From positions 1-44,152 of the forward strand of contig QILQ01000048.1 of the NCBI GenBank assembly GCA_003233455.1: a stretch of 44,152 bases of DNA. The letters are read 5' to 3'. Each line of letters opens with the position of its first letter. The first letter of the stretch is position 1. The DNA comes from Candidatus Zambryskiibacteriota bacterium. GTDB lineage: Bacteria; Patescibacteriota; Minisyncoccia; Phycocordibacterales; WO2-35-19. This document shows, in pieces, positions 10,518 to 43,647 of the stretch. Under the pieces are notes generated by a model. That model made no database searches. It was not told the origin of the DNA and saw only the letters and a list, made by a program, of their open reading frames with translations. Made by a program: the position numbers and the translations under genes.

Positions 10518-10560
10518 ATACTAATCTACAAATTATACAAATCAACAAATGGATACAAAT
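10518..10560 (+). repeat. Array of five TAC(A/T)AAT heptamers at the 5' end of the GxxExxY gene
   Basis: Units at 10519, 10527, 10536, 10544 (AACAAAT), 10554; array overlaps the ATG. Confidence 0.8.
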
Positions 10561-10929
10561 AAAAAAATAAATAAGAAAGTCATTTATCCAAAATTATCAT
10601 ATGTTATAACAGGCATATTGTTTGAAGCTCAAAATGAGCTCGGAAATTTTTCAAGAGAAAAGCAATATGGGGATTTAATAGAGACAAAATTAAAAGAAAA
10701 AGGTATTTTATACAAAAGAGAATTACCAATTTCTAATACAGGAAATATTCTTGATTTTGTAATTGAAGATAAAATTGTAATTGAGTTAAAAGCAGCAAAA
10801 TCTCTCACAAGAGAAAACTATAGACAAATACAAAATTATCTCCAAAGTACAGGTTATAAACTTGGTATGTTGGTTAATTTTAGAAGCAAATATTTAAAAC
10901 CAGAAAGAGTTATCAGAATTGATTCGTAG
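10549..10929 (+). CDS. GxxExxY family protein (PD-(D/E)XK nuclease superfamily)
   Basis: LSYVITG, ELGNFSREKQY, DFVIEDKIVIELKA, QIQNYL, GMLVNF. Confidence 0.9.
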   Translation: MDTNKKINKKVIYPKLSYVITGILFEAQNELGNFSREKQYGDLIETKLKEKGILYKRELPISNTGNILDFVIEDKIVIELKAAKSLTRENYRQIQNYLQSTGYKLGMLVNFRSKYLKPERVIRIDS

Positions 10930-10965
10930 TAATTTGTATTATTAGTAACATTTGTATATTAGTAT
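10922..10965 (-). repeat. Inverted array of five ATT(T/A/C)GTA heptamers at the 3' end of the GxxExxY gene
   Basis: Units at 10922, 10932, 10941, 10950, 10958; reverse complement of the 5' array; overlaps the stop codon. Confidence 0.8.
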
Positions 10966-10974
10966 ATTTATTTT

Positions 10975-11601
10975 ATGAACTCTATAGAAAAACTAATACA
11001 AATATTTTCCAATTTTCCGGGTATCGGACCGCGACAAGCTCGGCGATTTGTTTATTATTTGCTGACCAGAGCAAATGGAACTTTAGAAGAACTTTCTCAA
11101 AATATAAAAGATTTAAAAAATGATGTAATAATGTGTGCTGATTGTCAAAGATTTTTTGAGCACAAAAATAACAATTACAATGGTGCCCATTGTAAACATT
11201 GTAAAATATGTTCTGACAAAACTAGAGATGACTCTATTTTGATGTTAGTCCAAAGAGACGCAGACTTGGAATCAATAGAAAAAAACGGTGAATTTAAAGG
11301 TCTTTATTTTGTACTCGGAGGTTCGGTTCCGATATTAGAAAAAGAACCGGAAAAAAGAATTCGCATTAAAGAATTGAAAAAATTCCTTGAAAGAAAAGAA
11401 AATTTGAAAGAAATAATATTGGGAGTAAATTGGAATCCGGAAGGAGAAAATACCGGAGATTTTGTAGAAAAATTTATAAAACCGATTACAGAAAAAAATA
11501 AAATAAAAATTTCTCGTTTAGGTAAAGGACTTTCTATGGGTACCGAATTAGAGTATGCTGATAGTGAGACAATGAAAAATGCTTTGAAAAATAGGAGCTA
11601 A
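10975..11601 (+). CDS. recR: Recombination mediator RecR
   Basis: HhH motif FPGIGPRQARR, C4 zinc finger, Toprim domain (YFVLGG, NPEGE, GTELEYAD). Confidence 0.95.
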   Translation: MNSIEKLIQIFSNFPGIGPRQARRFVYYLLTRANGTLEELSQNIKDLKNDVIMCADCQRFFEHKNNNYNGAHCKHCKICSDKTRDDSILMLVQRDADLESIEKNGEFKGLYFVLGGSVPILEKEPEKRIRIKELKKFLERKENLKEIILGVNWNPEGENTGDFVEKFIKPITEKNKIKISRLGKGLSMGTELEYADSETMKNALKNRS

Positions 11602-11607
11602 AAAATT

Positions 11608-12189
11608 ATGAGCATCCAAAAATCTTATTTATATATTTTAATAACCGGCAGTATTATTGGTTTTGGAGCTTCTTTTTTGTTAATGATAGATACTTTAAAA
11701 CTTATAAAAAATCCGACCGCAATTCTTCCTTGCAATATTAATCCGTTTGTTAGCTGTGCTTCGGTTGCTGGTGCGTGGCAAAGCGAGATTTTTGGCTTCC
11801 CAAATCCCCTTTTAGGAATTGTATTTTTCAGTATGCTTTTAGTTATCGGTTTGATGCTTTATTTTAGAGGCAAAGTCGGTAGATTATTTTGGCTTTTGGT
11901 AAATCTAGGCACCCTAACCGCAATGTCTTTTGTTGTTTGGTTTTTCTACCAAAGTGTTTACAACATCGGCTCACTCTGTATCTACTGTATGGTAGTATGG
12001 ACAGTCACTTGGCCTATTTTTCTCTACACCACTATATGGAATTTCAAAGAAGAACATTTTAATGTTAAACACCGAGTGTTCAACATTTTAAATTTTGTTT
12101 CTCGTTATCATTTTCAAATTTTAATAGGATGGTATTTGATTATAGTTTTTCTAATATTATTTCATTTCCGCGATTTCTTTTTTGCTTAA
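11608..12189 (+). CDS. Vitamin K epoxide reductase (VKOR) family protein
   Basis: CNINPFVSC loop cysteines, FGFPNPLLG, LCIYC CxxC, TM helices. Confidence 0.92.
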   Translation: MSIQKSYLYILITGSIIGFGASFLLMIDTLKLIKNPTAILPCNINPFVSCASVAGAWQSEIFGFPNPLLGIVFFSMLLVIGLMLYFRGKVGRLFWLLVNLGTLTAMSFVVWFFYQSVYNIGSLCIYCMVVWTVTWPIFLYTTIWNFKEEHFNVKHRVFNILNFVSRYHFQILIGWYLIIVFLILFHFRDFFFA

Positions 12190-12200
12190 AAAAATTAAAT

Positions 12201-12617
12201 TTATACTATCTTATCTATTTTTACTTTGAAATATGGTTGACGATGACCGTTCTTTTTTAGATAACGGCTTTTGGCTTTATATTTGAGAACAATCACTTTT
12301 TTATTTCTACCTATTTCAATAAGAGTGCCGACTACTTTAGCCCCAGCAACATACGGTGTACCAATATCAGTCACATCTTTTCCATTATCCACTAGAAGCA
12401 CTTTATCAAACGTTATTTTATCCCCTTCTTTATGTTCCCCTTTGATTATCTCTATTTTTATGGTATCCCCAACAGCTAAACGGTATTGTTTTCCTCCCGT
12501 TTCTATTATGGCAAAACCGTTATTTTTTGTTGAAATTTCAGCCTTTTTTACCTTTTGGTCAATCTCTTTTTTCTCGGTTTTTTTTATGATTTTTGCGTCT
12601 TTTTTTGCTATTGACAT
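12201..12617 (-). CDS. rplU: 50S ribosomal protein L21 with Lys-rich N-terminal extension
   Basis: AIIETGGKQY, IGTPYV, GHRQPY. Confidence 0.96.
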   Translation of the reverse strand: MSIAKKDAKIIKKTEKKEIDQKVKKAEISTKNNGFAIIETGGKQYRLAVGDTIKIEIIKGEHKEGDKITFDKVLLVDNGKDVTDIGTPYVAGAKVVGTLIEIGRNKKVIVLKYKAKSRYLKKNGHRQPYFKVKIDKIV

Positions 12618-12694
12618 AACGGATACTACTTTACAGTATTTTTATAAAATACGCAAATTTCAACTTTCATTTCTATCAATAAAATAAAATTAAG

Positions 12695-13732: not shown

Positions 13733-13751
13733 ATTATATATTATAACAAAT

Positions 13752-14597
13752 TTATTTAATACTATCTTCAATTTTATAATCTCCCACTTTGTTTCTCTTA
13801 ATAGAAAGAATAGTCGCTCCGCAACCTAAAGTTTTACCTATATCATTTACCAAACTGCGAATATAAGTGCCAGAGGAAACATAAGCACTAAATCTGCCTA
13901 AAAAAAATTGTTCTTGAGAGTCTTTGAAAAGTATCTTTTTCCATAATGTTAAAATTTCGTGTTGTCTAAAATCTCCTTTTACTTTTGAAATATCCATTAA
14001 GAGTCTACCGAAAAGTTCTTTAGTATTTAAACTATCAAGTTTATGAAATTGAATTTTGTAGATAATAATTTTTTTCACCTCACCCCCTCTCCTTACAGGA
14101 TCTGTCCACTCATTGGATTTTTCTTCAAAAAATCTCAATGAGTCTTGCGAAGCTCCAAGTGTTCGCTTCTCACCCTTCTCCTTGCTAAGGCGAAGGGGGA
14201 CAGCTTTTTTATTATTATTACTAATAACTTTAGAAGAATAAGGTGGATATTTTTGCTTTCTTTTTCCTTTATAAATCATTGCTACTTTTCTCACTTCATT
14301 TTCTGAAAGATTTTTTATTTTTTTTACTTTTATTATTTTTCCCAAAATATCGTAAGTATCTGTGGTAAATCCAAAAAGAGAAACAAAATCATATTCTTTA
14401 TCAAGTCCAAAAAATTCTTCACGCCTACTCTGTGTCGTATCTTCTCCACTACCGACAAGCAAAACTCCTTCCGCCAAAGGATCCAATCTACCCAGATAAG
14501 TCATTTTTTCTTTTTTTAAACTGGGATTTTCCTTAATAAATCTTTGAATACACTCTAGCGGAGTTTCTCCTTTTTGTTTATATACATTAAATATCAT
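13752..14597 (-). CDS. truB: tRNA pseudouridine-55 synthase TruB-like, with in-frame insert
   Basis: GRLDPLAEGVL (catalytic Asp), TDTYD, YPPYSSK, VSSGTYIRSL; no PUA domain. Confidence 0.88.
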   Translation of the reverse strand: MIFNVYKQKGETPLECIQRFIKENPSLKKEKMTYLGRLDPLAEGVLLVGSGEDTTQSRREEFFGLDKEYDFVSLFGFTTDTYDILGKIIKVKKIKNLSENEVRKVAMIYKGKRKQKYPPYSSKVISNNNKKAVPLRLSKEKGEKRTLGASQDSLRFFEEKSNEWTDPVRRGGEVKKIIIYKIQFHKLDSLNTKELFGRLLMDISKVKGDFRQHEILTLWKKILFKDSQEQFFLGRFSAYVSSGTYIRSLVNDIGKTLGCGATILSIKRNKVGDYKIEDSIK

Positions 14598-14691
14598 AGT
14601 CTCCAGCTTATCCTAATTCAATCCAGAAATAAAGAATCCTAATTTCCACCGTAATATTTGACAAAATTAATTAAACGACTAGAGTGATATA

Positions 14692-16555: not shown

Positions 16556-16661
16556 ACACTTATTTACTCCTCCAAGAGGAGTGAAGTATTAAAATTTATA
16601 ATTAGAACTATTTTAAATATACCATATTGCCTTTTTATTTAAAACTATTAGAATAGATTAT

Positions 16662-17426: not shown

Positions 17427-17468
17427 TGATAATTAGTTTTTAATTACACAACATCTAATTCCAAAAAT

Positions 17469-17497
17469 CTATACTAAACGCTCGGCGTCTAATATAG
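17469..17497. repeat. 29-bp palindromic repeat, copy 1 (between convergent genes)
   Basis: CTATACTAAACGCTCGGCGTCTAATATAG; its reverse complement matches 43619-43647 at 28/29. Confidence 0.8.
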
Positions 17498-17515
17498 ATT
17501 TTTTAGAAACTTGTG

Positions 17516-23134: not shown

Positions 23135-23314
23135 AAGAATTACTAAACAAGTTTTACTTCTTACGAAGTATCGTTTGTTGTTTTTCTATTTCTTTGCGAA
23201 CTGTGTGACGCTCTTACCTTCAGTAAAAGGATTGTACTATCACACAACGATAGCACAAGCAAATCATATTGCACTTGCCCCAACCCACCCTATGCGTGCA
23301 CAAGCAAAGCTCCC

Positions 23315-24748
23315 TTACTCTTTACCTATACTTTCATACAATAAAGAATAAAATAACTTAACTTCCCAGGCATTGAGATGACTATTTAATGAAATAATAT
23401 CACTCTCTTTACCGTCTATTGTAATAGGATCCTTAATTGAAAAATCTTGAAATGGAATGTCTTTATTTTTGTATTTATTAATATATGCATGAATATCCCC
23501 CTCAAAATCTCTTAATATCTGAGTAGAAAAAGTTAAATAAGTTCTTTCTGGATTATTCTGTATAAGATCTTGTTTTGTACCATTCAAATTATCCTTTATT
23601 TCTTTAACTACTTCTTTAAATAAAGTCTTATCATCGAAAATTATCTTTAGTAATTCTATTCCTATTTTAATTGTCTCAAGCATTCCATTATTCCTACTAT
23701 TTGTATTTAAATTATATTCATCAAAAACGGGTAATTTATGCCTAACAATTTTCATTAACTGTCTTAAATCTAACTTCTTAAGATCTAACGATCTAATTAA
23801 AATATCTTCCAAAAAAATCTTTATATAATATGATCTGCCGACAAGACTTTTTTTAAGCTTTTCATTATCTGTTTTTATTTCTTTAAAAAAATTACTTAAA
23901 AATAATTTTACTACTTTGGAATTATCAAAATCAAAAATATTTATACTATAAAATTTATTAAAATATCCTTTTTCGCAAGTTTTTTCACCATATCTATGAT
24001 GAAAAATACTTTTAAGATTGTCATAGTCAGCAACTAAAATAATTTTATCAAATCCAAATTTATTCCTCCCATCTCTATCAAAAAATGCAGAGAATACATT
24101 TAGCACTCTAAATATATGTTCTGGATCTAGTCTGTCTAAGTCATCTAGTACCAAAACACTTTCTCTATTTTTTCCTCTCAGTTTCTTAATTGTATTATTT
24201 AATATGTAACTCAAATAGTCAGTTTCTGTTATGTTTTCTTCTTCAATTTTGGATATAAAATTTTTAACAAATTCCTCTTCGCTATTTTTATATTCCTTGT
24301 ATTTTTTATAAAACTCTGACATGTCTTTCAAAGGTCTCCCGAGTATTTTACCAAGCTCGTTAACTTCTAAATATGAAATGCTTTTCTTAAGAGCTGAGTT
24401 TAAAGAGAAATTTTGCTTTATATATTCAAATATACCAATGTCGTTTGTTTCAAATAATTCTTCTTTTCTATTTTTGTTTTTATTTAATAATGCTACCAAA
24501 ATGTCATACTTGAGAATATCAAAAATATCCTTGTTAGACGAAATTTGATAATTTACTGGAAATAAGTGAAAAACTTCATATTTTGTTTTATTTCTTTCAA
24601 AAAAATCTTTTAAAAAGAATGTTTTACCAATACCAAATTTTCCAGAAAATAAAATTCTTTCATTTCCTTTAATATCTAAATGCTCCTTAAAAGAGTCAAT
24701 AAAAGTATTATCAGGTAGCATATTTACTTCTTTTTGTTCTTTTTCCAT
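23315..24748 (-). CDS. KAP-family P-loop NTPase
   Basis: FSGKFGIGKT Walker A, LVLDDLDRLDP Walker B, YFNKF; very AT-rich; start set at ATG 24748. Confidence 0.85.
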   Translation of the reverse strand: MEKEQKEVNMLPDNTFIDSFKEHLDIKGNERILFSGKFGIGKTFFLKDFFERNKTKYEVFHLFPVNYQISSNKDIFDILKYDILVALLNKNKNRKEELFETNDIGIFEYIKQNFSLNSALKKSISYLEVNELGKILGRPLKDMSEFYKKYKEYKNSEEEFVKNFISKIEEENITETDYLSYILNNTIKKLRGKNRESVLVLDDLDRLDPEHIFRVLNVFSAFFDRDGRNKFGFDKIILVADYDNLKSIFHHRYGEKTCEKGYFNKFYSINIFDFDNSKVVKLFLSNFFKEIKTDNEKLKKSLVGRSYYIKIFLEDILIRSLDLKKLDLRQLMKIVRHKLPVFDEYNLNTNSRNNGMLETIKIGIELLKIIFDDKTLFKEVVKEIKDNLNGTKQDLIQNNPERTYLTFSTQILRDFEGDIHAYINKYKNKDIPFQDFSIKDPITIDGKESDIISLNSHLNAWEVKLFYSLLYESIGKE

Positions 24749-27179: not shown

Positions 27180-28343
27180 TTATTTTTTCTTATGCTTGAT
27201 AATTATTCTCATATAAGGAATAGTAGCCTTACCGTCCTCATTATAATAACCAAGAATTGGATGGTTCTCACTAATTGATCCTGTCCCTCCATTTTGATAA
27301 TAATTATCTACAAATTCTTTATTTAAACCCTTTGGTGTAAGCTCTCTATATAAGTTACCTTGACCTAATCCAATAATTTCAAATTGCTTAGGACTATATT
27401 TACTAAAAAAACTAATTGGCACTCCCATTGCTCCCTTGTAATCACTTGGAATATTTTTAACTTTCGAGACTTCTATGGCATTGTAATTATCGTATTTTTG
27501 AAATGGTTTTTTTGTTACAAATTTAACTACTTCTGCCTTAGTCATTAGTGGCAACGGTTGATGACGTCGCCCATGATCTATATTAGTAAACCAGATTGTT
27601 CCTGCAACAAATGCATATTTTTTGCCATTCTCCTTTTTATGAAAATTTTTATAACTATTGGGCACTTGATACCACACATTTCGTCCATCATTTTTGCCAG
27701 CTCCAAGCCAAATTTTGTTATTCTTCATTAGGGGAAATATTTTTGCATATTTTAAAGCATTCATACCGCCGATAATAATAAATTTTTTATCATAGTCGAC
27801 AAGTTGTTTTAGATACTCTCGAAATAAGCTGAATGGCGGATTTGTTATCACAATATCGGATTGTTTAAGTAGGTTTATACATTCATTACTTTGAAAATCA
27901 CCATCGCCATCAAGCGGTGCCCACTCGTTATTTTTATTTTTCTTTAATTGCAACGCAACATCCTTCAAGTTGAACTGACCGTCGCCGTCTATGTCGTGAA
28001 CTTCGTTGATAATAAATTTGTTCGCAGTAACTTTCGGACGACCTTTTGATTTGGCGAGAGTTTTATCATCGCCAAACAATCCGAGTTGTGTGTTGGCTAC
28101 TGGCGAGGACTTGTAGCTAGTGGTGATAAGTTGTTTCAATCCAAGCTTGTTGAAATTGAGCACGAAGTAGCGAAAGAAATTACTCTCAAACGGATCGTCG
28201 CAGTTGCAATATACCACCTTGCCTCGAAATACCTTAGGATTGTATTCCAAATACGCTTCAATCTCTTTTTGAATATCGCCGTACTGAGTATAAAACTCAT
28301 CGTTCTTTGCCTGTTTTGCGTTTGTAAGATTATTATTTGCCAT
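27180..28343 (-). CDS. Adenine-specific DNA methyltransferase, EcoRI-like family
   Basis: AKNDEFYT, VYCNCDDP, GDGDF, DIVITNPPFSLFREY, IPSDYKGAMGVPI. Confidence 0.92.
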   Translation of the reverse strand: MANNNLTNAKQAKNDEFYTQYGDIQKEIEAYLEYNPKVFRGKVVYCNCDDPFESNFFRYFVLNFNKLGLKQLITTSYKSSPVANTQLGLFGDDKTLAKSKGRPKVTANKFIINEVHDIDGDGQFNLKDVALQLKKNKNNEWAPLDGDGDFQSNECINLLKQSDIVITNPPFSLFREYLKQLVDYDKKFIIIGGMNALKYAKIFPLMKNNKIWLGAGKNDGRNVWYQVPNSYKNFHKKENGKKYAFVAGTIWFTNIDHGRRHQPLPLMTKAEVVKFVTKKPFQKYDNYNAIEVSKVKNIPSDYKGAMGVPISFFSKYSPKQFEIIGLGQGNLYRELTPKGLNKEFVDNYYQNGGTGSISENHPILGYYNEDGKATIPYMRIIIKHKKK

Positions 28344-28345
28344 AA

Positions 28346-28543
28346 TTATTTTATTAAATTATCAACACTCATTTCAAGTGCCTTGGATATTTTTTGCAAA
28401 GTATCAAGTGTTGGGTTTTGGTTTTTACCTGCTTCAATCTTGATTATGGTATTGTTAGCAACATCCGCCAATCTCGCTAATCGCTCTTGCGACAACCCTT
28501 TTTTCTCTCTCGCTTTTCGTAAATTTTTTGAAATGTTGGACAT
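28346..28543 (-). CDS. XRE-family HTH regulator (RM controller-like)
   Basis: LRKAREKKGLSQERLA...IE.G...PTLDTL..I..AL. Confidence 0.92.
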   Translation of the reverse strand: MSNISKNLRKAREKKGLSQERLARLADVANNTIIKIEAGKNQNPTLDTLQKISKALEMSVDNLIK

Positions 28544-28778
28544 AAATATTTTAGATAAAAGATATATTCTCTTTCTACTACTCTAATAGTATATCATATT
28601 TCTAAATTTATAGCGAACCCACAAAAACAAAAATTTCGCCTTTGCGTTTTTATCCTTTTTTTTGCCCCCAATTTTTTTTGAAAAAGGAAAAGGCAAAAGC
28701 GAAGCGTTTCGCTTTGTTACTTGCAATCGCTCTGCGATTGTTTGTCAAAGAAAATTCACGCAAAGGTTGCTATACCGT

Positions 28779-28806: not shown

Positions 28807-28876
28807 ACCCTACCGGGAGTTGAACCCGGATTACCGCCTTGAGAAGGCGATGTCCTAACCATTAGACGATAGGGCC
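28805..28876 (-). tRNA. tRNA-Glu(CTC)
   Basis: GGCCCTA acceptor, anticodon loop TTCTCAA, GGTTCAACTCC. Confidence 0.95.
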
Positions 28877-28915
28877 TTTATTAAAACGATTATAACAACT
28901 TTTAAACTAAAATAA

Positions 28916-28953
28916 ACTAAAAGCGTCCTGACATTCGTCAGGAAGCTTTTAGT
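28916..28953 (-). terminator. Hairpin/terminator downstream of small acidic ORF
   Basis: AACTAAAAGC-G-TCCTGAC-ATTC-GTCAGGA-A-GCTTTTAGTT, followed by T-rich sequence on the minus strand. Confidence 0.6.
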
Positions 28954-28972
28954 TTCTAGACTGCTAAATTTC

Positions 28973-29149
28973 TTACTCAGCAGCGGGAGTATCAGTAGCG
29001 GGAGTTGTTGACTCTTCCGCTGGAGTATCGGTAGCGGGAGTAACAGGAACTGTTGACTCTTCTGTAGAAGTAGTAGCAACAGGAGTATCAGTAGCGGGAG
29101 CTGTTGACTCATCTATAGGAGTTGCTCCATCATTGTTTTGATCATCCAT
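28973..29149 (-). CDS. 58-aa acidic Pro/Thr/Ala/Glu repeat protein
   Basis: MDDQNNDGATPIDESTAPATDTPVATTSTEESTVPVTPATDTPAEESTTPATDTPAAE*; synonymous third-position changes between repeats; below the ORF-track cutoff. Confidence 0.7.
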   Translation of the reverse strand: MDDQNNDGATPIDESTAPATDTPVATTSTEESTVPVTPATDTPAEESTTPATDTPAAE

Positions 29150-32799: not shown

Positions 32800-34278
32800 T
32801 TATTCCTTTGGTTTCATCAGTGGAAAAGTTTGGAGTTCACGGAGAGGTTTACCAGCTAAAACCGCAAATAGACGCTCACCAAAACCATAACCGCAAGTCG
32901 GTGGCATTCCATACTCCAACATTTCTATAAATTCAAAATCTGGCATCATCGCTTCTTCATCTCCTTCATCAATCAATTTTTGTTGAATCTCAAATCGTTC
33001 TTTTTGGTCTATCGGATCATTCAATTCAGAATAACCTCTACCCACTTCACTGCCAGCGATAATCGGTTGGAACATTTGAGTTACATTTTTTCCTAAAACT
33101 TTTTTAGCTAATGGTGCCACTAAAGAAGGATGATTGATAAGAAAAGCCGGACCGGAAATATTTTTGCGACAATGTTTCCAAAGAGTATCTATCAAACGTT
33201 CTCTATTTGTTCCTTGATAAGAAACTTTAAATTCATCTAATTTATTTTTCATTTCTTCTTCACTCGCTTTTTCAATATTTATGCCGGTTTGTTTTTTAAT
33301 CTCACTCACATAATCAATCTCTCGCCACTCATTATTTAAATCAAAAGTATGTCCATTATATTCAAACTTGGTTTTACCAAAAATTTTTTTGGCGATAATT
33401 TTGTAAAGTTCTTCTACTAATTTCATCCCATCTCGGTAATCAGCATAACCCCAATAAAATTCCATATTTGTAAATTCCTGTAAATGTTCCGGACTAGTGC
33501 CTTCGTTTCTATAAATCCTGCCTATTTCAAAAGTTTTAGGAAAACCAGCCGCCATCAATCTTTTTTGCCATAATTCTCCAACCGAAATCCGTAAATACAT
33601 ATCCAAATCAAAATCATTATGATGAGTTTTAAAAGGTCTGGCCTCGGCACCGCCGGTGGTTAATTCTAAAGTTGGAGTTTCCACTTCCAAAAATTCTCTT
33701 TCTTTAAAAAAGGCTCTGATAACATCCCAAAACTTTGATTTTTTTATTATTAATTTTTTTAATTCACCATTCATTAACAAATCTAAATATCGTTTGCGAT
33801 AACGTTCTTCTGTGTCTTGTAAACCATGCCATTTTTCCGGCAAAGGTCGCAGACTCTTACTTAATATTTTCCAATCGGAAACTTGCATAGTTTTTTCTTT
33901 TCTTTTAGTTATAAAAAGAGTTCCTTTAACTTCTATAAAATCTCCAATATCTATTGTTTCAGTGAATAAATTAAAATCTTTATCGTTTATATTTTCTCTT
34001 TTTTTGAGCAATATTTGAAATTTTCCGGCCTGCCTGCCGTCAAGAGAGGTGCCATCAAAAAGATCTGCGAAAACAATCGCTCCTTGAGCTCGCAAAGCCA
34101 TTATCCTGCCGGCAATAGTTATTGGTTTATTTTCTTTCCGTAGTTTTTCAAATTCTTTTGTTAATTTCCCAATTTCAAAATTTCTATCTGTTTTTGCAGG
34201 ATAAGGATTAACACCCGCTTTTTGCAGTTTTTGCAATTTTTTTAATCTTGCTATCCGAATTTCTTCTAAAGAAGCCAT
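32800..34278 (-). CDS. lysS: Lysine--tRNA ligase (class II)
   Basis: RYRKRYLDL, GGAEARPF, IGRIYRNEG, HLQEFT, YSELNDP, YGMPPT. Confidence 0.97.
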   Translation of the reverse strand: MASLEEIRIARLKKLQKLQKAGVNPYPAKTDRNFEIGKLTKEFEKLRKENKPITIAGRIMALRAQGAIVFADLFDGTSLDGRQAGKFQILLKKRENINDKDFNLFTETIDIGDFIEVKGTLFITKRKEKTMQVSDWKILSKSLRPLPEKWHGLQDTEERYRKRYLDLLMNGELKKLIIKKSKFWDVIRAFFKEREFLEVETPTLELTTGGAEARPFKTHHNDFDLDMYLRISVGELWQKRLMAAGFPKTFEIGRIYRNEGTSPEHLQEFTNMEFYWGYADYRDGMKLVEELYKIIAKKIFGKTKFEYNGHTFDLNNEWREIDYVSEIKKQTGINIEKASEEEMKNKLDEFKVSYQGTNRERLIDTLWKHCRKNISGPAFLINHPSLVAPLAKKVLGKNVTQMFQPIIAGSEVGRGYSELNDPIDQKERFEIQQKLIDEGDEEAMMPDFEFIEMLEYGMPPTCGYGFGERLFAVLAGKPLRELQTFPLMKPKE

Positions 34279-37801: not shown

Positions 37802-37873
37802 AACGCATAATATTATAACAAATTTATAGCAAAAAGCTATAAATTACATAAAGTCACCTATTTTTGATAACTT

Positions 37874-38695
37874 CTATTTACTTAATTCTTTTAAAGCATT
37901 AAGGGTTGCTTCTTTTACGATATTTATCGGAATATAAGAATATCTAATACTTGATTCATTAAATGGTGCTTCTATACCCACTACTTCGCCAGAGAGATTA
38001 AGAGCCGGACTACCAAAATGACTTTTTGAAATTTTTATATCGGAAATAATACTTTCCACTGTTTTCTTATTATTATTGTCAAAAATAAGTTGAAATATTC
38101 TACCAACAGAAGCGGCATTTGAATTTCGACCGCTGATAGCTATTAAAGTCTGACCTATTTTAAGTTTATTAGAATTACCAAATATGACCGGATAGAAAGT
38201 ATATTTAGGATTCTCATTCTTGGGAATAGCTGTTTTTATAAAGATTAGTTTATCTTCTTTATCAATTAAGACTTTTCCAGCGGAATATTTTTTACCATCA
38301 TAAAATGAAATATTGTAAATAGAAGAATTATTATAACTTCTTAAATCAGAAACAATTATTCCACTAGCAGAAACAACCAAACCAAGTCCAGAAACTATTT
38401 CTGAACCGTCGGCTCCGGTAGTTTTTAGTCGTACTATAGATTTTTCATTTTTAGCGATAGAGTCAAGTATTTTATTTTCTTCATTCACAATCACCGTAGT
38501 GATTATTTTTTCGGATTTACCCTTTTCCGGTGCCACTTGTTGAATAGTTCTTTCCACCACCCGATTGATAGTTTGGGTTACTTCCACTGGAGCTTCCGAA
38601 AGTAAAGTAAAGGTAATAATACCGGTGGCAATAGAAGTCACAAAAGTAATTAGTAAAACAATAAGTATAAGTTGATGTTTAGTTAAATCTTCCAT
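37874..38695 (-). CDS. Membrane-anchored trypsin-like (HtrA/S1C-fold) protein, probably catalytically inactive
   Basis: SGLGLVVSASGIIVS, FGNSNKLKIGQTLIAI, GSPALNLSGEVVGI; TNxH and GNSGG motifs replaced. Confidence 0.75.
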   Translation of the reverse strand: MEDLTKHQLILIVLLITFVTSIATGIITFTLLSEAPVEVTQTINRVVERTIQQVAPEKGKSEKIITTVIVNEENKILDSIAKNEKSIVRLKTTGADGSEIVSGLGLVVSASGIIVSDLRSYNNSSIYNISFYDGKKYSAGKVLIDKEDKLIFIKTAIPKNENPKYTFYPVIFGNSNKLKIGQTLIAISGRNSNAASVGRIFQLIFDNNNKKTVESIISDIKISKSHFGSPALNLSGEVVGIEAPFNESSIRYSYIPINIVKEATLNALKELSK

Positions 38696-38836
38696 CCCGT
38701 AGTGAGAAATGGCATTGCTTTTTTGGAAAGCGCCACTTTATTAATTAAAATTAAATTTATAATATTTCTATATATGAATAATACCATATCATTATCAATA
38801 ACAAAAGCTTTCCGATGCCATTTTCTACTACGGGAT
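38694..38836. repeat. Imperfect inverted repeat pair (CCCGTAGT...ACTACGGG) next to GIY-YIG gene
   Basis: 38694-38731 ATCCCGTAGTGAGAAATGGCAT...GGAAAGC versus reverse complement of 38807-38836 ATCCCGTAGTAGAAAATGGCATCGGAAAGC. Confidence 0.75.
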
Positions 38837-38853
38837 CCATCTGTTTATTTCAA

Positions 38854-39120
38854 TTATACTTTATTTTCTTTACTAAAGAATTCCTTTAATCTTTTTCCTA
38901 CTAATCTTCTACCTTGAGTAGTTTTTAAATATCCTTCCCTTCTTTTACTATCATTTTTATTCAAACAGGCTTCATAATAAATAAGCTTCCAGGGCTTATA
39001 TCTTTTAGTAGAAGGAGTTACACCTTTATTATGTTCTACTAATCTACGTTTTAAATCATTAGTTCGTCCAGTATAAATTTCCCCATTTTTTTCACTTTGT
39101 AAAATATAATTATAAAACAT
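38854..39120 (-). CDS. Stand-alone GIY-YIG nuclease family protein
   Basis: YNYILQS, YTGRT.DL.RRL.EHN, PWKLIYYE, RE.YLK. Confidence 0.92.
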   Translation of the reverse strand: MFYNYILQSEKNGEIYTGRTNDLKRRLVEHNKGVTPSTKRYKPWKLIYYEACLNKNDSKRREGYLKTTQGRRLVGKRLKEFFSKENKV

Positions 39121-39149
39121 ATTGAAATAAATATTATTTTTATGGGTAA

Positions 39150-40592
39150 TTACTTAATTATTTTTTTCAGAGCTATAATCAGTTTATCTAAGTCAGTTTT
39201 TTTAGTATCACGACCGAGAGTAAAGCGAAGAGAAGATGAGGCGCATTCCGGTTTACCTAAACTTTCAATAACATAAGAGCTATTTTCCAACGAGAGAGTA
39301 TGACAGGCCGAAGCGGCCGAAACAGCAAAACCAAGAGTATCTAATTTAATAACAAGAAATTCCGAATTTAAAGGGTCACCCTTTGGGGCAAAATTCTTCA
39401 AGGGTGACCCTTGGGAACCAAAAGCCAAAGGCAGTTCTCTCGAGGTAGGAATCTTCAAGAGTAACTCTTGGGATTGGGAACCAAAAGCCAAGGGCAACCC
39501 TTGAACTGCCCCTGCCCCAAAGGGTTGCCTTTGGCTTTTTCCAAAACAAATATTTATATTATTCGGCAATCTGTTTTCTAAATCACCATTAAGTGAAGAA
39601 TTCGGAATTTCTTTTAAAATTTTAGAGATAGCGTAGTCGCGTAATTTCGTTAAACGCAACGACTCTTTCTCTCTCATTTTAACGGTTATTTCTAAAGCCT
39701 TAGCCAAACCGACCGCGCCAACCACATTTTCTGTCCCCGGTTTTAAACCTCTTTCTTGTCCTCCGCCAAAAATAATAGGAGAAATGTTTGTTCCATTTTT
39801 AACTACCAAAATTCCCATCCCTTTTGGTCCATATATTTTAATACCGTCAAAAATAAGCAAGTCAGCTCCTAATCTTTCCAGAGAAACTTTTTCATAAGCG
39901 ATACTTTGACCAGCATCAACCAAAAAATATGGTTCCACCAAAGGCTTATTTTGTACAAGGTTTAACCTTGTATTTTTTTTGTATTCTTTGATTATTTTTG
40001 AGATTTTTTGAATTGGTTGTATTGTCCCGATTTCACTGTTTGCATGTTGAACTATCACCAAAACAGTATTTTCTTTTATTTCTTTTTTTATTGATTCTGG
40101 ACTAATAATTCCTTTTTTATTCGGAGCAACAAAAGAAACTTCTATTTTTTTTTCTTTGAGTAAATATTTTATTGGTTCCAAAACAGCCGAATGCTCTATT
40201 AAAGAAACTATTATATGAGAAATTAAAGGGTCACCCTTTGGGGCAAAATTCTTCAAGGGTGATCCTTGGGAACCAAAAGCCAAGGGCAACCCTTGAACTG
40301 CCCCTGCCCCAAAGGGTTGTCCTTGATTTCTGATAACACCTAAAATGGCAATATTTAATGACTCAGTGCCACCACTGGTAAAAAATATCTCACTGGCGCG
40401 ACAACGCAACAAGCGAGCTATTTTTATTCTAGCTTTCTCTAATGTTTCTTTGGTTATCTCTCCTTCTGTATGCAAAGAAGAAGGATTAGCCCAAAATTTT
40501 TTTTGGGTTTTTTCCATTTCTTTCGCCACTTTATAATCAATCGGTGTAGCCGCAGCGTAGTCTAAAAATATTCTTTGAGTTATTTTTTTCAT
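39150..40592 (-). CDS. iscS: Cysteine desulfurase (IscS/NifS group I) with in-frame repeat insertions
   Basis: LDYAAATP, FTSGGTES, NSEIGT, DAGQS, KIYGPKG (PLP Lys), GGGQE, SAASAC (catalytic Cys). Confidence 0.92.
   Translation of the reverse strand: MKKITQRIFLDYAAATPIDYKVAKEMEKTQKKFWANPSSLHTEGEITKETLEKARIKIARLLRCRASEIFFTSGGTESLNIAILGVIRNQGQPFGAGAVQGLPLAFGSQGSPLKNFAPKGDPLISHIIVSLIEHSAVLEPIKYLLKEKKIEVSFVAPNKKGIISPESIKKEIKENTVLVIVQHANSEIGTIQPIQKISKIIKEYKKNTRLNLVQNKPLVEPYFLVDAGQSIAYEKVSLERLGADLLIFDGIKIYGPKGMGILVVKNGTNISPIIFGGGQERGLKPGTENVVGAVGLAKALEITVKMREKESLRLTKLRDYAISKILKEIPNSSLNGDLENRLPNNINICFGKSQRQPFGAGAVQGLPLAFGSQSQELLLKIPTSRELPLAFGSQGSPLKNFAPKGDPLNSEFLVIKLDTLGFAVSAASACHTLSLENSSYVIESLGKPECASSSLRFTLGRDTKKTDLDKLIIALKKIIK
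39370..39533. repeat. In-frame array of six ~15-bp palindromes inside iscS
   Basis: (C/A)AAGGGYNACCCTT(G/T)-type units at 39370, 39399, 39426 (degenerate), 39456, 39489, 39519. Confidence 0.9.
40225..40325. repeat. In-frame array of four ~15-bp palindromes inside iscS
   Basis: Units at 40225, 40254, 40281, 40311; spacers identical to those of the 39370-39533 array. Confidence 0.9.
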
Positions 40593-40637
40593 TTTGATAT
40601 TTTGAATAATATCATAATTAATGTATAATGCTTAATT

Positions 40638-41129
40638 ATGATAATAGATTGGAATTCAGCTGTTTTTTTTACGCCTTTTATCGCCTTAGCGATTTCTTTA
40701 ATCGCTCTTATTTTTTCAGTAGCGATGCATATCAGAGTCTCTAAAATATTCAGAAGTGCCAACACTCCTGATATAGAAAGACTTTTAAAACTTCATACTA
40801 AAACTTTAGAAAACCTTATAAAATTTCAAACAGAGTCAACCTCTTATATGAAATTATTAAGTGACAGAATAAAAGAAAAAATGAGAAGCGCCCCTACTTT
40901 AAGATTTAATCCATTCAAAGGAGGTAAGTTTGGCGGTAATCAAAGTTTTTCTTCAATTTTTGCGGACGAAGAAGGAAATGGGGTGATAATAACCAGTATG
41001 CACACAAGGGAAAGAACCAATGTCTTTGCTAAACCATTAAAAAATTGGAAGAGTGAACACGAATTAACGGTTGAAGAAAAAGAAGTAATAAAAAATTCAG
41101 TCAGTCAATTAAAGCAAAAAGAAAAATAA
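40638..41129 (+). CDS. DUF4446-like membrane-anchored protein
   Basis: N-terminal TM, RFNPF..GGNQSFS, GNGVIITS, FAKP, L..EE. Confidence 0.8.
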   Translation: MIIDWNSAVFFTPFIALAISLIALIFSVAMHIRVSKIFRSANTPDIERLLKLHTKTLENLIKFQTESTSYMKLLSDRIKEKMRSAPTLRFNPFKGGKFGGNQSFSSIFADEEGNGVIITSMHTRERTNVFAKPLKNWKSEHELTVEEKEVIKNSVSQLKQKEK

Positions 41130-42635
41130 ATGGAACAAGAAAATAAAAAAGAAAAAATAAGTGAAGTTGTTCGCCCACCGGTAGTGGTGGTAATGGGTCA
41201 TATTGACCATGGCAAATCTACTCTGCTTGATTACATAAGAAAAACAAATACTACCGAAAAAGAGAGTGGCGGTATTACTCAACATATATCAGCTTATGAA
41301 GTGGAAAAAGAAATTGGCGGTCAGAAAAGAAAAATCACTTTTTTAGACACTCCCGGACATGAAGCTTTTTGTTCCATTAGAGAGCGTAGCGTGGAGGTGG
41401 CAGACATAGCCATTTTAGTGGTATCAATAGAAGATGGGGTAAAAAATCAAACTATGGAAGCCTCAAACTGTATCTGCAAAAATATAATTCCCTTTATTGT
41501 GGCTTTAAATAAAATTGATAAAATAGGAACCAGTGTAGATAAAGCGAAACAAAACTTGACAGAAAATGGAATTCTGGTGGAAGGTTGGGGTGGTACCGTA
41601 CCAGTGGTATCTATTTCGGCCAAAACCGGAAAAGGTATAACTGAACTTTTAGAAATGATAATTCTTCAATCAGATATTGAAGAATTGAAAGGCGATTCTG
41701 CTATTCCGGCGGAAGGTTTTGTTATAGAAAGTAACCTGAACCCAAAGCGAGGTATTTCAGCCATCTTGATAATAAAAAACGGGTCTCTTAAAACAGGTCA
41801 GTTTATCGCCACCCAAAATGCTTATACTCCCGTCCGAATGATAGAAAATTATAAAGGGGAAAATATTAAAGAAGCGAGTTTTTCCAGTCCGGTTAGAATA
41901 ATAGGTTGGAATACTCAACCAAAAGTAGGTAGCCAATTTAAAACTTTTTTTAAAAAAGAAGAAGCTGTAAAATTTGCTTGTCAAAAAGTAGAAGTTAAAA
42001 TAAAAGGAACACAAAATACTTCAAGCGGAAAAATTATCTTGGGAGTAGTTATAAAAACAGATACTTTTGGTTCTTTAGACGCGATAGAATATGAACTTCA
42101 AAAATTAACCAATGAAAAAATAGTGGTTAAAATAATTTCAAAAGGAATCGGGGCTATCACAGAAAGAGATTTAAAAACGGCAAATATAAAAAATAGTTTG
42201 ATTTTAGGCTTCAATGTAAAAGTAAATAAAAACGCCGAGGTGCTCGCTCTCCGAGACGATATAAGAATAAAAACACATCAAATAATATATGAATTGGTTG
42301 ATTATGTAAAAGAAAAAATAAAAGAAGCCACTCCAACCGAAACGGTTGAAGTAATAACCGGTGAAATTAAATTGCTTAGAATTTTTAATAAGAATAAAGA
42401 CAAACAAGTGGTCGGCGGACGAGTGAATAAGGGAGAGATAAAAAAAGAATCAACAGTTAAAATATTTAGAAGAGAAACCTTAATTGGTGAAGGGAAAATA
42501 AAAGAACTCCAAATGCAAAAAATAAAAACTGATGTAATTCAAGAAGGTCAAGAATTTGGGATGATGATAGAATCAAAAATAGAATTAGCTCAAGGAGATA
42601 TTTTAAAAGCTATTTCTCTTATTAAACAAAAATGA
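41130..42635 (+). CDS. infB: Translation initiation factor IF-2 (minimal form)
   Basis: RPPVVVVMGHIDHGKS, GGITQHISAY, DTPGHEAF, NKID. Confidence 0.96.
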   Translation: MEQENKKEKISEVVRPPVVVVMGHIDHGKSTLLDYIRKTNTTEKESGGITQHISAYEVEKEIGGQKRKITFLDTPGHEAFCSIRERSVEVADIAILVVSIEDGVKNQTMEASNCICKNIIPFIVALNKIDKIGTSVDKAKQNLTENGILVEGWGGTVPVVSISAKTGKGITELLEMIILQSDIEELKGDSAIPAEGFVIESNLNPKRGISAILIIKNGSLKTGQFIATQNAYTPVRMIENYKGENIKEASFSSPVRIIGWNTQPKVGSQFKTFFKKEEAVKFACQKVEVKIKGTQNTSSGKIILGVVIKTDTFGSLDAIEYELQKLTNEKIVVKIISKGIGAITERDLKTANIKNSLILGFNVKVNKNAEVLALRDDIRIKTHQIIYELVDYVKEKIKEATPTETVEVITGEIKLLRIFNKNKDKQVVGGRVNKGEIKKESTVKIFRRETLIGEGKIKELQMQKIKTDVIQEGQEFGMMIESKIELAQGDILKAISLIKQK

Positions 42636-42982
42636 AACCAGTAAATAAATTTAAAGACCAAAAATCCATCTCTCTTATTTCCAGATTTGCAGCTGAATAT
42701 TTTAGTATGGAATCAAATCAAGATTCTTTGATAACTGTCACCAAAACAGAAATATTTAATCGTGGCAGAAGAGCCACAATATTTTTTACCGCCTTGCCGA
42801 TAGAAAAAGAAGGCGCCGCTTTGGAGTTTGCCAAACGACGGCGGCAAGATTTTCGCCAATTTGTAATGTCTAAAAAATCTTTTGGTTTTACTCCAAAAAT
42901 AGATTTCTGCCTAGATGAAGGCGAACATAATCGCCAAAGAATAGATGAATTATCAAACGAATCCGTCGTTGAAAATTTATAA
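42632..42982 (+). CDS. rbfA: Ribosome-binding factor A
   Basis: Overlaps the infB stop (ATGA); ITVT, A.IFF, TPKIDF..D, RIDEL. Confidence 0.85.
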   Translation: MKPVNKFKDQKSISLISRFAAEYFSMESNQDSLITVTKTEIFNRGRRATIFFTALPIEKEGAALEFAKRRRQDFRQFVMSKKSFGFTPKIDFCLDEGEHNRQRIDELSNESVVENL

Positions 42983-43010
42983 AATAAAAGCTAAAATGCA
43001 TCTCATATAC

Positions 43011-43082
43011 GGCCACGTAGCCAAGGAGTAAGGCATTCCTCTGCAAAAGGAATATACGCGAGTGCAATTCTCGCCGTGGCCT
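43011..43082 (+). tRNA. tRNA-Cys(GCA)
   Basis: TTCCT-CTGCAAA-AGGAA anticodon arm; U discriminator; atypical T-loop TGCAATT. Confidence 0.93.
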
Positions 43083-43116
43083 CCCTAATTTATTAAAGTT
43101 AGGATTGTAAATTGTT

Positions 43117-43203
43117 GCTCGGGTGGTGGAATTGGTATACACGAGGGACTTAAAATCCCTTGGTCGCAAGACCTTGCGGGTTCAACTCCCGCCCCGAGCA
43201 CCA
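43117..43203 (+). tRNA. tRNA-Leu(TAA)
   Basis: AGGGA-CTTAAAA-TCCCT, long variable arm, encoded CCA. Confidence 0.96.
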
Positions 43204-43204
43204 T

Positions 43205-43277
43205 CCGCTCATAGCTCAGTTGGTAGAGCAGCTCCCTCTTAAGGAGATGGTCCTAGGTTCAAATCCTAGTGAGCGGA
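43205..43277 (+). tRNA. tRNA-Lys(CTT)
   Basis: Anticodon loop CTCTTAA, TAGCTCAGTTGGTAGAGC D-arm, GGTTCAAATCC. Confidence 0.94.
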
Positions 43278-43330
43278 CAAGACAAAAAATCTGCGACGAT
43301 AGATATTTTTTGTGTTATATTATTTCAGTC

Positions 43331-43411
43331 GGGCAAGTGGTGGAATGGTAGACACGCTAGCCTTAGGAGCTAGTGCCGCAAGGCGTGGAGGTTCAAGTCC
43401 TCTCTTGCCCA
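43331..43411 (+). tRNA. tRNA-Leu(TAG)
   Basis: CTAGC-CTTAGGA-GCTAG, long variable arm, GGTTCAAGTCC. Confidence 0.96.
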
Positions 43412-43591
43412 CAATAGAAAATATCCCCCTTGTGGGGGATATTTCATTGTGGGCAAGAGGTCTAGGATTTTGTAATCAAAATCCGTAAGACGGACTTGAA
43501 AACCTTTGATAGTTTTTTGTAAGTTCGCGAAACAAAAAACAGAAAAGGTGTACAGATTCTGTAAGAATCAAGATTCCTCTCTTGCCCACAA
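43398..43591 (+). repeat. tRNA-Leu 3'-end duplication element (direct and inverted copies)
   Basis: TCCTCTCTTGCCCACAA at 43398 and 43575; inverted ATTGTGGGCAAGAG at 43446 and GGACTTGAA at 43492. Confidence 0.85.
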
Positions 43592-43618
43592 AATAACACC
43601 ATATTTTTTAAGTAATTT

Positions 43619-43647
43619 CTATATTAGACGCTGAGCGTTTAGTATAG
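43619..43647. repeat. 29-bp palindromic repeat, copy 2 (upstream of rnpB promoter)
   Basis: CTATATTAGACGCTGAGCGTTTAGTATAG; inverted match to 17469-17497. Confidence 0.8.

Follow-up and report, generated by a model that had tools for sequence, protein, structure and literature searches.

RAYT transposases of the HUH-Y1 type each have short GC-rich hairpins of their own next to the gene, on one side or on both, with further copies scattered over the genome, and the hairpins also occur as inverted doublets; in the accounts cited here, each RAYT type is single-copy with orthologues in related species (PMC5581495, PMC6006769), RAYTs number 1.3-1.8 per replicon (PMC5581495), a GTAG or CGTC tetranucleotide is conserved beside the hairpin (PMC3733652) and the repeats of REP/RAYT are described as predominantly extragenic. 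The RPE of Rickettsia, as presented in PMC10969869 after Ogata et al. 2000/2002, are in-frame palindromes of ~150 bp that add peptides to numerous housekeeping genes, unrelated to each other, in a reduced genome. Ssn with its NTS/SRM repeats (Chenal et al. 2025, PMC11893778) is described as a single-domain GIY-YIG nuclease of ~90 residues that has its own inverted-repeat motif on both sides, a layout that, according to its authors, resembles an insertion sequence. Bacterial MITEs (reviewed in PMC10969869) are below 300 bp and comprise gene-less and gene-bearing forms with common terminal inverted repeats and short junction duplications.

The window analysed here, a stretch of 44,152 nucleotides, belongs to the genome of a Candidatus Zambryskiibacteriota bacterium (736 kb, AT-rich, of the CPR/Patescibacteria type and ~88% coding). 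As in REP/REPIN-RAYT systems, HUH-Y1 genes with their own dispersed hairpins, inverted doublets and single-copy RAYT types with orthologues in related species are all found; unlike in the published systems, ten diverged RAYT-like genes share 0.74 Mb, their proteins have about 215-240 residues and score under the NCBIfam equivalog cut-off, families have 3-14 copies, and many copies are intragenic and translated. The likeness to the RPE lies in the in-frame palindromes and added peptides; phylum and sequences differ (the RPE were compared by their published description), most elements are only ~20-110 nt long and candidate partner genes can be named. As in Ssn, a small GIY-YIG nuclease has its own inverted repeats, but here these are few, the elements sit on start codons, and a search with the degenerate SRM consensus as published gave 0 matches in the genome versus 0-1 in 10 shuffles. 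The MITE architecture recurs too, the difference being that gene-bearing forms hold only a small nuclease (GIY-YIG or DUF559) and not a DDE, serine or tyrosine transposase.

We consider it likely that this genome has become host to several families of mobile palindromic elements, very small in size and independent of one another, and that each family has a partner gene of its own. The repeats, their adjacency to genes, the conservation in relatives, the insertion polymorphism and the empty sites were seen directly; the partner proteins would move their repeats, by whatever chemistry. The suggestion of a possibly undescribed class of minimal selfish elements, made in a preliminary description of the window, holds at most in part: REP/RAYT is established, and Ssn/NTS (PMC11893778) is a published small GIY-YIG nuclease with its own flanking repeat. 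A description of such elements in CPR bacteria was not found in the literature.

RAYT-like genes and dispersed palindromes

Self-BLAST of the genome (G000; G006, G012 and G014 are among the relatives' genomes, and C7, C8, C14, C15 and C52 are other contigs) yielded 90 repeat families, the biggest with at least 34 loci, and motif counts greatly exceed those in shuffled sequence. Each repeat of the preliminary description was found in place in the window, and its proposal that non-autonomous copies persist between genes or in frame within loops agrees with the data: copies are dispersed, polymorphic and insertion-like, and the in-frame sites are variable loops. Inserts in same-genus orthologues are polymorphic, being present or absent with clean empty sites, and copy numbers among species of one genus range from 0 to 24 for family B and up to 46 for family A. 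As the genome is ~88% coding, many insertions would land in genes; 26 of 73 repeat loci are intragenic, which is below the coding share, yet far more than for classical REPs. Repeats have no excess of stop-free sequence when compared with random segments of equal length.

The absence of a transposase, noted in the preliminary description, is true for the 44 ORFs scanned in the window, but not for the genome, which has 10 RAYT-like (HUH-Y1) genes. Pfam Y1_Tnp matches these genes at 36-46 bits (eight genes) or 22 bits (two genes, whose matches count only jointly with neighbouring matches in frame), and all 10 translations keep the HUH and YxHxNP motifs (NH[FY]H, YIHxNP). With the NCBIfam model for REP-associated tyrosine transposases (NF047646), 7 of the 10 proteins were tested and all score 41-72 bits, below the equivalog cut-off of 80. 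Every one of the 10 genes has a palindrome at, or no more than 76 nt from, the gene, and nine of these palindromes are dispersed, with 3-14 copies at up to 2 mismatches. The same arrangement is seen in relatives: a palindrome with an arm of at least 9 nt lies within 200 nt of 14 of 15 RAYT-like genes (the same one on both sides in six), and orthologous RAYTs with 61-80% identity retain palindromes that are similar by eye; paralogues within one genome are at most 65% identical.

Four repeat families of the window map to RAYT-like genes, namely those of AGACGCNGAGCGT, of recR, of a VKOR-family gene and of the third site in iscS. AGACGCNGAGCGT is found at 17478 and 43626 and has 7 matches in the genome (both strands) versus 0 in shuffles; the two window copies belong to self-BLAST family F8:

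17462..17498, no strand assigned: AGACGCNGAGCGT palindrome, family F8, intergenic between convergent genes
43618..43647, no strand assigned: AGACGCNGAGCGT palindrome, second F8 copy of the window, 35 nt upstream of the RNase P RNA gene (43682-44004)

An inverted F8 doublet precedes the RAYT-like gene C7:855-1508 by 76 nt, and the orthologue of this gene in G012 (78% identical) has the same doublet 46 nt away. By analogy with characterised RAYTs, each RAYT-like enzyme would have its own hairpin as substrate, which it would bind and cleave in single-stranded form and thereby spread.

Repeat copies inside housekeeping genes

At least 15 housekeeping genes of the genome contain in-frame repeat copies: iscS, truB, lepA, ksgA, tsaD, topA, a DUF4131 gene, dus, a class-I tRNA synthetase gene, recO, tsaE, an M50 protease gene, fmt, a pseudouridine synthase gene and gatA; the window adds recR and the VKOR-family gene. 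The intragenic sites of the window are:

11163..11195, plus strand: in-frame palindrome in the zinc-finger loop of recR, encoding NYNGAHCK, self-BLAST family F3
12061..12088, plus strand: in-frame palindrome near the C-terminus of the VKOR-family gene, of the family that flanks the RAYT-like gene C52:374-1042
14076..14200, minus strand: composite element of family A, degenerate and in frame with truB (about residues 133-173)
34021..34056, minus strand: GC-rich stretch in lysS that encodes 7 residues (SLDGRQA), an indel shared by 4 of the 13 genus orthologues in the alignment
39364..39539, minus strand: iscS insert block 2 (residues 352-410), AAGGGYNRCCCTT doublets of family B, REPIN-like
39953..39975, minus strand: iscS site 3, in-frame palindrome encoding NTRLNLVQ, of the family that flanks the RAYT-like gene C8:1843-2490
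40219..40325, minus strand: iscS insert block 1 (residues 90-125), family B

The palindromes of recR, the VKOR-family gene and iscS site 3 had been overlooked in the preliminary description. The recR palindrome is of the family that flanks the RAYT-like gene C15:4755-5480, and among 16 orthologues five additional residues are unique to G000. The iscS gene has three variable sites that are occupied by different elements in different species. AAGGGTNACCCTT occurs in this gene at three exact sites, or in eight units if one mismatch is allowed, and the two insert blocks are mutually 96-100% identical; block 2 is missing or different in 10 orthologues and coincides with a gap when the protein is aligned to a solved IscS structure. 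The AAGGGTNACCCTT doublets look REPIN-like and were probably spread by RAYT-like enzymes.

The truB insert has a hairpin with an 11-nt arm at 14173-14197 and a second GC-rich end at 14076-14099 that bears the family-A end motif; orthologues have other inserts, or next to none, at the same site. It is probably a decayed, gene-less copy of a terminal-repeat/hairpin unit whose full form would bear a DUF559 (Vsr-like) nuclease gene. The probable insert previously suggested for lysS is indeed an indel that varies among orthologues, but it could be matched to none of the repeat families. Among insertions into genes, the survivors would be those that keep the frame, are free of stops and lie in tolerant loops, with a gain of 5-60 residues.

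Small nucleases flanked by inverted repeats

Two small nuclease-fold genes of the window, each the sole copy of its type in the genome, have repeats beside them:

10518..10548, no strand assigned: upstream arm of the GxxExxY cassette, ACTAAT/TACAAAT units
10549..10929, plus strand: GxxExxY/PDDEXK_3 small nuclease-fold gene
10927..10974, no strand assigned: downstream arm, ATTTGTA/ATTAGTA units, reverse complements of the upstream units; the first unit holds the stop codon
38696..38841, no strand assigned: gene-less 146-bp element with terminal inverted repeats of ~30 nt, on the start codon of a protease gene
38854..39120, minus strand: gene for a single-domain GIY-YIG nuclease of 88 residues (Pfam 4e-16, residues 2-71)

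CCCGTAGT at 38696 (+) and 38834 (-) marks the two ends of the 146-bp unit, whose arms start ATCCCGTAGT. The 8-mer CCCGTAGT alone has 9 matches in the genome versus 7.6 in shuffles, no excess over chance; the 17-nt arm of the repeat has 4 versus 0. The element hit a protease gene (37874-38695, minus strand) and rebuilds its start codon: ATGG is found at both junctions, a duplication of 2-4 nt with ambiguous limits, and nine of nine relatives have an uninterrupted ATGGAAGAT-type start (GTG in one) without the terminal inverted repeat, i.e. an empty site. The second and last copy in the genome, on C14 (about 6454-6600), is likewise on a start codon. G000 has just one GIY-YIG gene, one GxxExxY gene and two gene-less elements of the GIY type. 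Common terminal inverted repeats, a target-site duplication and an empty site, as in a MITE with an autonomous parent, were all found for the GIY-YIG unit. The GIY-YIG gene of G000 adjoins the 146-bp element but lies outside its ends, and the spacer between iscS and the protease gene lacks it in 9 relatives; among solved structures, the nearest to its product are UPF0213 proteins (E about 1e-3).

GIY-YIG homologues are present in 32 of 41 genomes, patchily and in multiple copies. In 11 of 16 loci of relatives, the 6-mer TCCCGT lies within 250 nt of the gene (2.7 per kb versus 0.31 per kb farther off), and in 7 of 9 loci inspected the ORF is bracketed by terminal inverted repeats of the ATCCCGT(T)AG type, 14-25 nt in length. 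In seven elements, the repeat end supplies the ATG start of an ORF with 146 residues or more. The inverted CCCGTAGT pair is probably the gene-less form of a terminal-inverted-repeat unit of ~300 bp, with a small GIY-YIG nuclease as its sole gene, which would land on start codons and restore the ATG.

Heptamer arrays around the GxxExxY gene, as reported previously, are present at the window locus, and similar arrays exist in relatives. The gene matches PDDEXK_3 (Pfam, 6e-21) and TIGR04256 (NCBIfam, 4e-20). Its array in G000 is short, with a common 5-mer four times upstream and twice, as reverse complement, downstream; in relatives, 13 of 15 loci have arrays on at least one side (by eye) and about 9 of 15 have units common to both sides (5-mer count). 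The gene with its mirrored arms appears to form a cassette suited to the gap from one neighbour's stop codon to the next one's start codon: the dnaB|recR spacer is just 2-20 nt in five genomes of the genus, and the cassette is found there in G000 and G006.

Both DUF559 genes of G000 are bracketed by family-A hairpins. Such a hairpin is found upstream in all 14 DUF559 loci examined (by eye) and downstream as well in 8; DUF559 is Vsr-like, the nearest solved structure being 3hrl, an 'Endonuclease-Like Protein'. The idea that small nucleases each pair with a cognate palindrome is borne out in part: relatives consistently have, beside GIY-YIG, GxxExxY and DUF559 genes, a repeat type particular to each of the three, but four window families pair with RAYT-like genes instead.

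Movement of the repeats and its meaning

Across the genomes of relatives, which are not independent points, the copy number of family A, one of the two big repeat families, correlates equally with the numbers of DUF559 and RAYT genes (rho 0.58 for both) and that of family B, the other, with RAYT number (rho 0.79, n = 25; 0.27 for DUF559), while neither tracks the GIY-YIG count (rho -0.11 for A, -0.19 for B) and the GxxExxY count gives rho 0.08 with A and 0.43 (p = 0.03) with B. None of the candidate partner genes adjoins a family B copy in G000, and the link between family B and RAYTs thus rests on this correlation among related genomes and on the flanks of one orthologue.

A more far-reaching version of the mobile-element explanation is possible, and we offer it tentatively: Patescibacteria may host a set of the smallest autonomous mobile elements known, of ~300-480 bp, each with one small nuclease from among several unrelated folds as sole 'transposase'. 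Such elements, along with a tenfold-expanded RAYT repertoire, would be a main source of new protein sequence in streamlined genomes. The folds would be GIY-YIG, Vsr-like DUF559 and PD-(D/E)XK GxxExxY, each acting on its own inverted-repeat arms and gene-less derivatives, and insertion would spare the host by taking place at a start codon, in the gap from a stop codon to the next start codon or, in frame, within a protein loop.

Free-standing homing endonuclease genes are small nucleases wedged between conserved neighbours and patchy across relatives. The nuclease genes could be cargo or homing genes, with the repeats spread in trans by RAYTs or another factor; they would home into, or be tolerated inside, existing palindromes, which would leave repeat halves on their flanks. 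This agrees with the equal correlation of family A with RAYT and DUF559 numbers, with G014, which has 7 family-A matches and no DUF559, with the dnaB|recR junction, where four genomes have family-A hairpins alone, and with the recurrence of GxxExxY at few fixed junctions (dnaB|recR, nusG|rplK and upstream of an ABC ATPase gene). We nevertheless regard it as unlikely: each nuclease family has its own repeat type, covarying with the gene across genera, and GIY-YIG units, near which no RAYT gene lies, end in exact inverted repeats, show short duplications at their junctions and occupy many sites that are unrelated to one another. Homing endonuclease genes also differ from these genes in that the latter have inverted repeat arms on their flanks, derivatives without a gene and insertion sites that are numerous and unrelated.

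That all the palindromes are propagated by tiny stand-alone nucleases (GxxExxY, GIY-YIG, DUF559 and others), without a conventional transposase, seems quite improbable. The conserved adjacency of the three nuclease types to repeats and the transposase-free window would fit, but the ten RAYT-like genes have palindrome families of their own, to which four window families map, and family B follows RAYT number rather than GIY-YIG or DUF559, with a weaker correlation with GxxExxY. Finally, immobile host sequences (terminators, operators, methylation or restriction sites, or palindromes iterated by repair, as biased repair has been proposed to do for cyanobacterial HIP1) would suit the terminator- or promoter-like places of 17462-17498 and 43618-43647, the GGTNACC within AAGGGTNACCCTT and the Vsr-like nature of DUF559, but are highly improbable given presence/absence polymorphism with clean empty sites at orthologous positions, copies within unrelated essential genes, copy numbers within one genus that vary from 0 to 24 in family B and reach 46 in family A, and terminal inverted repeats accompanied by junction duplications.

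If the repeats are indeed moved by their partner proteins, HUH-Y1 enzymes would be joined, as drivers of miniature mobile DNA, by three nuclease folds that are not known as transposases, and the GIY-YIG unit would rank with the smallest mobile elements that are self-contained. Whatever the mechanism, dozens of essential proteins of this 0.74-Mb genome (IscS, TruB, RecR, TopA, LepA, TsaD and others) tolerate and keep species-specific peptide inserts from selfish DNA. This is relevant to the annotation of CPR proteins, whose length often exceeds that of their homologues, to how reduced genomes gain new sequence and to the long-standing question of what spreads coding palindromes of the Rickettsia type.

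The genome and its repeat families

The Candidatus Zambryskiibacteriota genome (736,150 bases in 52 contigs, 96.6% complete, about 33% G+C), of which the window is contig C1, has a gene content that points to an organism of the CPR/Patescibacteria type: a short IF-2, DUF4446, VKOR and a minimal housekeeping set. All items listed in the preliminary description were found in the window. Its statement that no transposase is present holds for the window, where a Pfam scan of 44 ORFs found none, but not for the genome, which has 10 matches to the transposase family Y1_Tnp.

Genome-wide, CCCTCTCCTT has 45 hits (0.6 in shuffled sequences), GGGGTGAGGT has 42 (0.2 in shuffles), AAGGGTNACCCTT has 24 when both strands are counted (12 sites; 0 in shuffles) and AGACGCNGAGCGT has 7 (0 in shuffles). 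The 8-mer CCCGTAGT by itself shows no enrichment in the genome (9 versus 7.6 in shuffles); its 17-nucleotide arm does (4 versus 0). BLAST of the genome against itself yielded 90 repeat families, several small ones of which are mere contig-end overlaps of 87-91 nucleotides. The largest has at least 34 loci and consists, as read from 30 loci among those listed, of two modules: family A, with the layout ACCTCACCCC ... CCCCTCTCCTTAnTAAGGAGAGGGG ... GGGGTGAGGT, and family B, in which AAGGGYNRCCCTT units are paired as a doublet with about 17 nucleotides between them. Rfam found only eight tRNAs and the RNase P RNA in the window, and no repeat there reaches the gathering score of any RNA family.

Further repeats were observed. 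A 20-nucleotide perfect palindrome, TGTAGCGATnnATCGCTACA, has six clear copies, all intergenic (C13:16694, C13:26300, C16:21510, C17:11032, C5:4419 and C8:6663); no partner gene was identified for it in this genome. The last 91 nucleotides of the window (44062-44152) are identical to the ends of C22, C32 and C35, an assembly-graph overlap at a repeat, and C22 holds the only four-helix-bundle (23S rRNA IVP-type) gene of the genome. Three tandem repeats of 45-51 nucleotides (28979-29122) lie within a small ORF without Pfam match (28855-29112, minus strand). Repeats with 88-94% identity to stretches on C4, C6 and C11 (window 23225-23317, 28336-28609 and 28606-28697) bracket a defence-type island at 23.3-28.3 kb, beside tRNA-Glu, with a KAP NTPase, GmrSD/HNH, Fic and an EcoRI-like methylase. 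At tRNA-Leu(tag), the sequence of the 3' end, cctctcttgcccaca, recurs as a direct repeat about 165 nucleotides downstream and, in between, as an inverted copy that adjoins a terminator-like hairpin (43399-43413, 43448-43460 and 43577-43591); a small element that once integrated there may have left these repeats as a scar.

RAYT-like transposases and their palindromes

All 10 Y1_Tnp proteins of the genome (about 160-300 residues) have the HUH and YxHxNP motifs, and no two of them exceed 65% identity. The NCBIfam model of REP-associated tyrosine transposases (RAYTs), with which seven of the 10 were tested, scores them at 41-72 bits, under its cut-off of 80; we refer to them as RAYT-like. All 10 genes have a palindrome at or within 76 nucleotides, often on both sides, and nine of these 10 palindromes, with hairpins taken from the genome by coordinates, recur 3-14 times genome-wide with at most two mismatches. 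Four of the families have copies in the window, and those within genes, all in frame, were missed by the preliminary description.

Window copies of palindromes that flank RAYT-like genes
17462-17498 and 43618-43647: AGACGCNGAGCGT; matches the RAYT-like gene on C7
11163-11195: in recR, encoding NYNGAHCK in the zinc-finger loop; matches the gene on C15
12061-12088: in a VKOR-family gene; matches the gene on C52
about 39953-39975: in iscS (site 3), encoding NTRLNLVQ; matches the gene on C8

A search of 41 genomes found Y1_Tnp proteins in 32, among them all 16 relatives in the genus; the genome described here has the most copies. Of 20 loci taken from relatives, 15 contain a frame that can be recognised as RAYT-like; a palindrome lies within 200 nucleotides in 14 of the 15, and six have the same palindrome on both sides. 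Orthologous RAYT pairs (61-80% identity) retain similar palindromes when compared by eye; also by eye, the orthologue of the C7 gene in the relative G012 has the same inverted doublet 46 nucleotides away. The orthologue of the C8 gene in G006 (79% identity) is flanked by AAGGG-type palindromes. Beyond the downstream palindrome, several RAYT-like genes (on C13, C3, C16 and C15) have a TGTGGTATAAT box that resembles an extended -10 element, and the 12-mer is present nine times in the genome; units with this box may carry outward-facing promoters.

Family B is arranged as doublets, the form of a REPIN (inverted REP doublet), and has between 0 and 24 copies across relatives. Its copy number correlates with the number of RAYTs (rho 0.79, n=25) but not with DUF559 (rho 0.27) or GIY-YIG (rho -0.19); with GxxExxY, rho is 0.43 (p = 0.03). 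The genomes compared are related and not independent, so that the p-values overstate significance. No partner gene adjoins family B in this genome and its links to RAYTs are indirect only.

Small nuclease genes with repeats of their own

The 88-residue GIY-YIG gene is the sole copy in the genome; homologues are patchy and multi-copy (32 of 41 genomes, up to six copies). TCCCGT, the 6-mer that opens the arm seen in the window, is found within 250 nucleotides of the gene at 11 of 16 loci, with a density of 2.7 per kb near GIY-YIG versus 0.31 per kb farther off. Terminal inverted repeats of 14-25 nucleotides enclose the ORF exactly at seven of the nine loci inspected, and the 3' repeat provides the last codons and the stop. 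In seven elements, which include both gene-less copies of this genome and of which two represent one orthologous site, the outer repeat end is ...ACGGGATG, and its ATG opens an ORF of 146 residues or more. ATGG is present at both junctions of a 146-bp element in this genome. In all nine relatives compared, the spacer between iscS and the protease gene is short, the start is uninterrupted and there is neither a GIY-YIG gene nor a repeat. Small GIY-YIG nucleases (Ssn) with NTS/SRM repeats of their own on the flanks have been described, in an arrangement that the authors compare to an insertion sequence (Chenal et al. 2025, PMC11893778); the SRM consensus, as available from that paper, has no match in our genome.

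Two DUF559 genes are present, both close to hairpins of the family-A type.

DUF559 genes
C16:10173-10487: full family-A elements on both sides
C14:9010-9330: family-A-like hairpin 12 nucleotides away

By eye, a GC-rich hairpin of the family-A type, with a lineage-specific sequence, lies at most 170 nucleotides upstream of DUF559 at all 14 loci examined (from 13 relatives and this genome), and a mirrored copy lies downstream at eight of the 14. In two relatives, large ORFs contain DUF559 together with both of its hairpins as one entire in-frame unit (about 1013-1324 of locus L034 in G031 and about 1501-1815 of L045 in G033), and the flanking peptides suggest that the hosts are leuS and tgt. The number of family-A matches correlates equally with DUF559 count and with RAYT number (rho 0.58 each), and one genome has seven matches and no DUF559.

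GxxExxY is single-copy in this genome, and the family is present in 14 of 41 genomes with one to three copies each. Arrays of ACGAAT/ACAAAT-type units lie upstream of the gene and their reverse complements downstream, from the stop codon onward; arrays are found on at least one side at 13 of 15 loci, judged by eye, and on both sides at about nine, by a count of shared 5-mers. Among genomes of the genus, the junction between dnaB and recR, where the cassette resides (window 10511-10974; loci L131-L145), is a hot spot for insertions.

States of the dnaB-recR junction
Empty, spacer of 2-20 nucleotides: five genomes
GxxExxY cassette: G000 (this genome) and G006
Family-A-type hairpins alone: four genomes, one also with leftover heptamers
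Other inserts: the remaining genomes

Copies inside genes and overall reading

Simple gene calling gave 781 genes and a coding fraction of 88%; on these calls, genes contain five of the 23 family-A hairpins, 29 of the 44 family-B units and one of nine sites of the AGACGCNGAGCGT family. Counted over seven repeat families, 26 of 73 loci in this genome are intragenic. Pfam identified the family of all 13 host proteins scanned (lepA, ksgA, tsaD, topA, a DUF4131 gene, dus, a class-I tRNA synthetase, recO, tsaE, an M50 protease, fmt, a pseudouridine synthase and gatA); iscS and truB of the window are two more hosts. One element is translated in frames that differ with the host, as VSRVTLELPLSQRVTLDT in topA and AKGHPLGQGQFKGDPWQ in lepA. 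The idea that the repeats are translatable by design was dropped: stop-free frames are no commoner than in random segments of the same length.

Ten iscS orthologues from the genus vary at three places, namely the family-B blocks at residues 90-125 and 352-410 and site 3, each of which is absent, shorter or swapped for another element; the family-A peptide PLSLLRRGG occupies site 3 in one species. Insert placement was taken from the alignment to solved IscS proteins, as an AlphaFold2 model from an 11-sequence alignment (mean pLDDT 34) was of no use for placing inserts in loops. The solved proteins align to residues 9-88, 125-351 and 409-479; both family-B blocks are therefore in alignment gaps, and site 3 is a gap inside the second aligned stretch. 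The truB insert of the window is degenerate but has the family-A end motif and a family-A-like hairpin; in the 11 orthologues, compared with it by eye, the site holds long inserts of unrelated sequence, nearly nothing or, in two genomes, the family-B peptide DPLGQGQFKGHPLE. The five extra residues at the recR palindrome are found only in this genome among 16 orthologues. An indel of 7-8 residues in lysS (4 of 13 orthologues) matched no palindrome family.

The preliminary description had proposed palindromes propagated by tiny stand-alone nucleases. The pattern is confirmed and extends further than was seen then. RAYT-like transposases, which are of a known kind, account for most families of the window. 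Published precedents are REP/RAYT, the Rickettsia palindromic elements (RPE) and Ssn/NTS. Literature searches found no description of such elements from CPR/Patescibacteria; the main text of PMC11893778 does not contain the word 'Patescibacteria', and its supplementary tables may list such genomes. As for nuclease-only elements, the candidates are the units with GIY-YIG, DUF559 and GxxExxY, and for every family the role of the partner protein in moving its repeat is putative. The best reading is that this genome would host several families of miniature mobile palindromes side by side, each family having a partner gene of its own.
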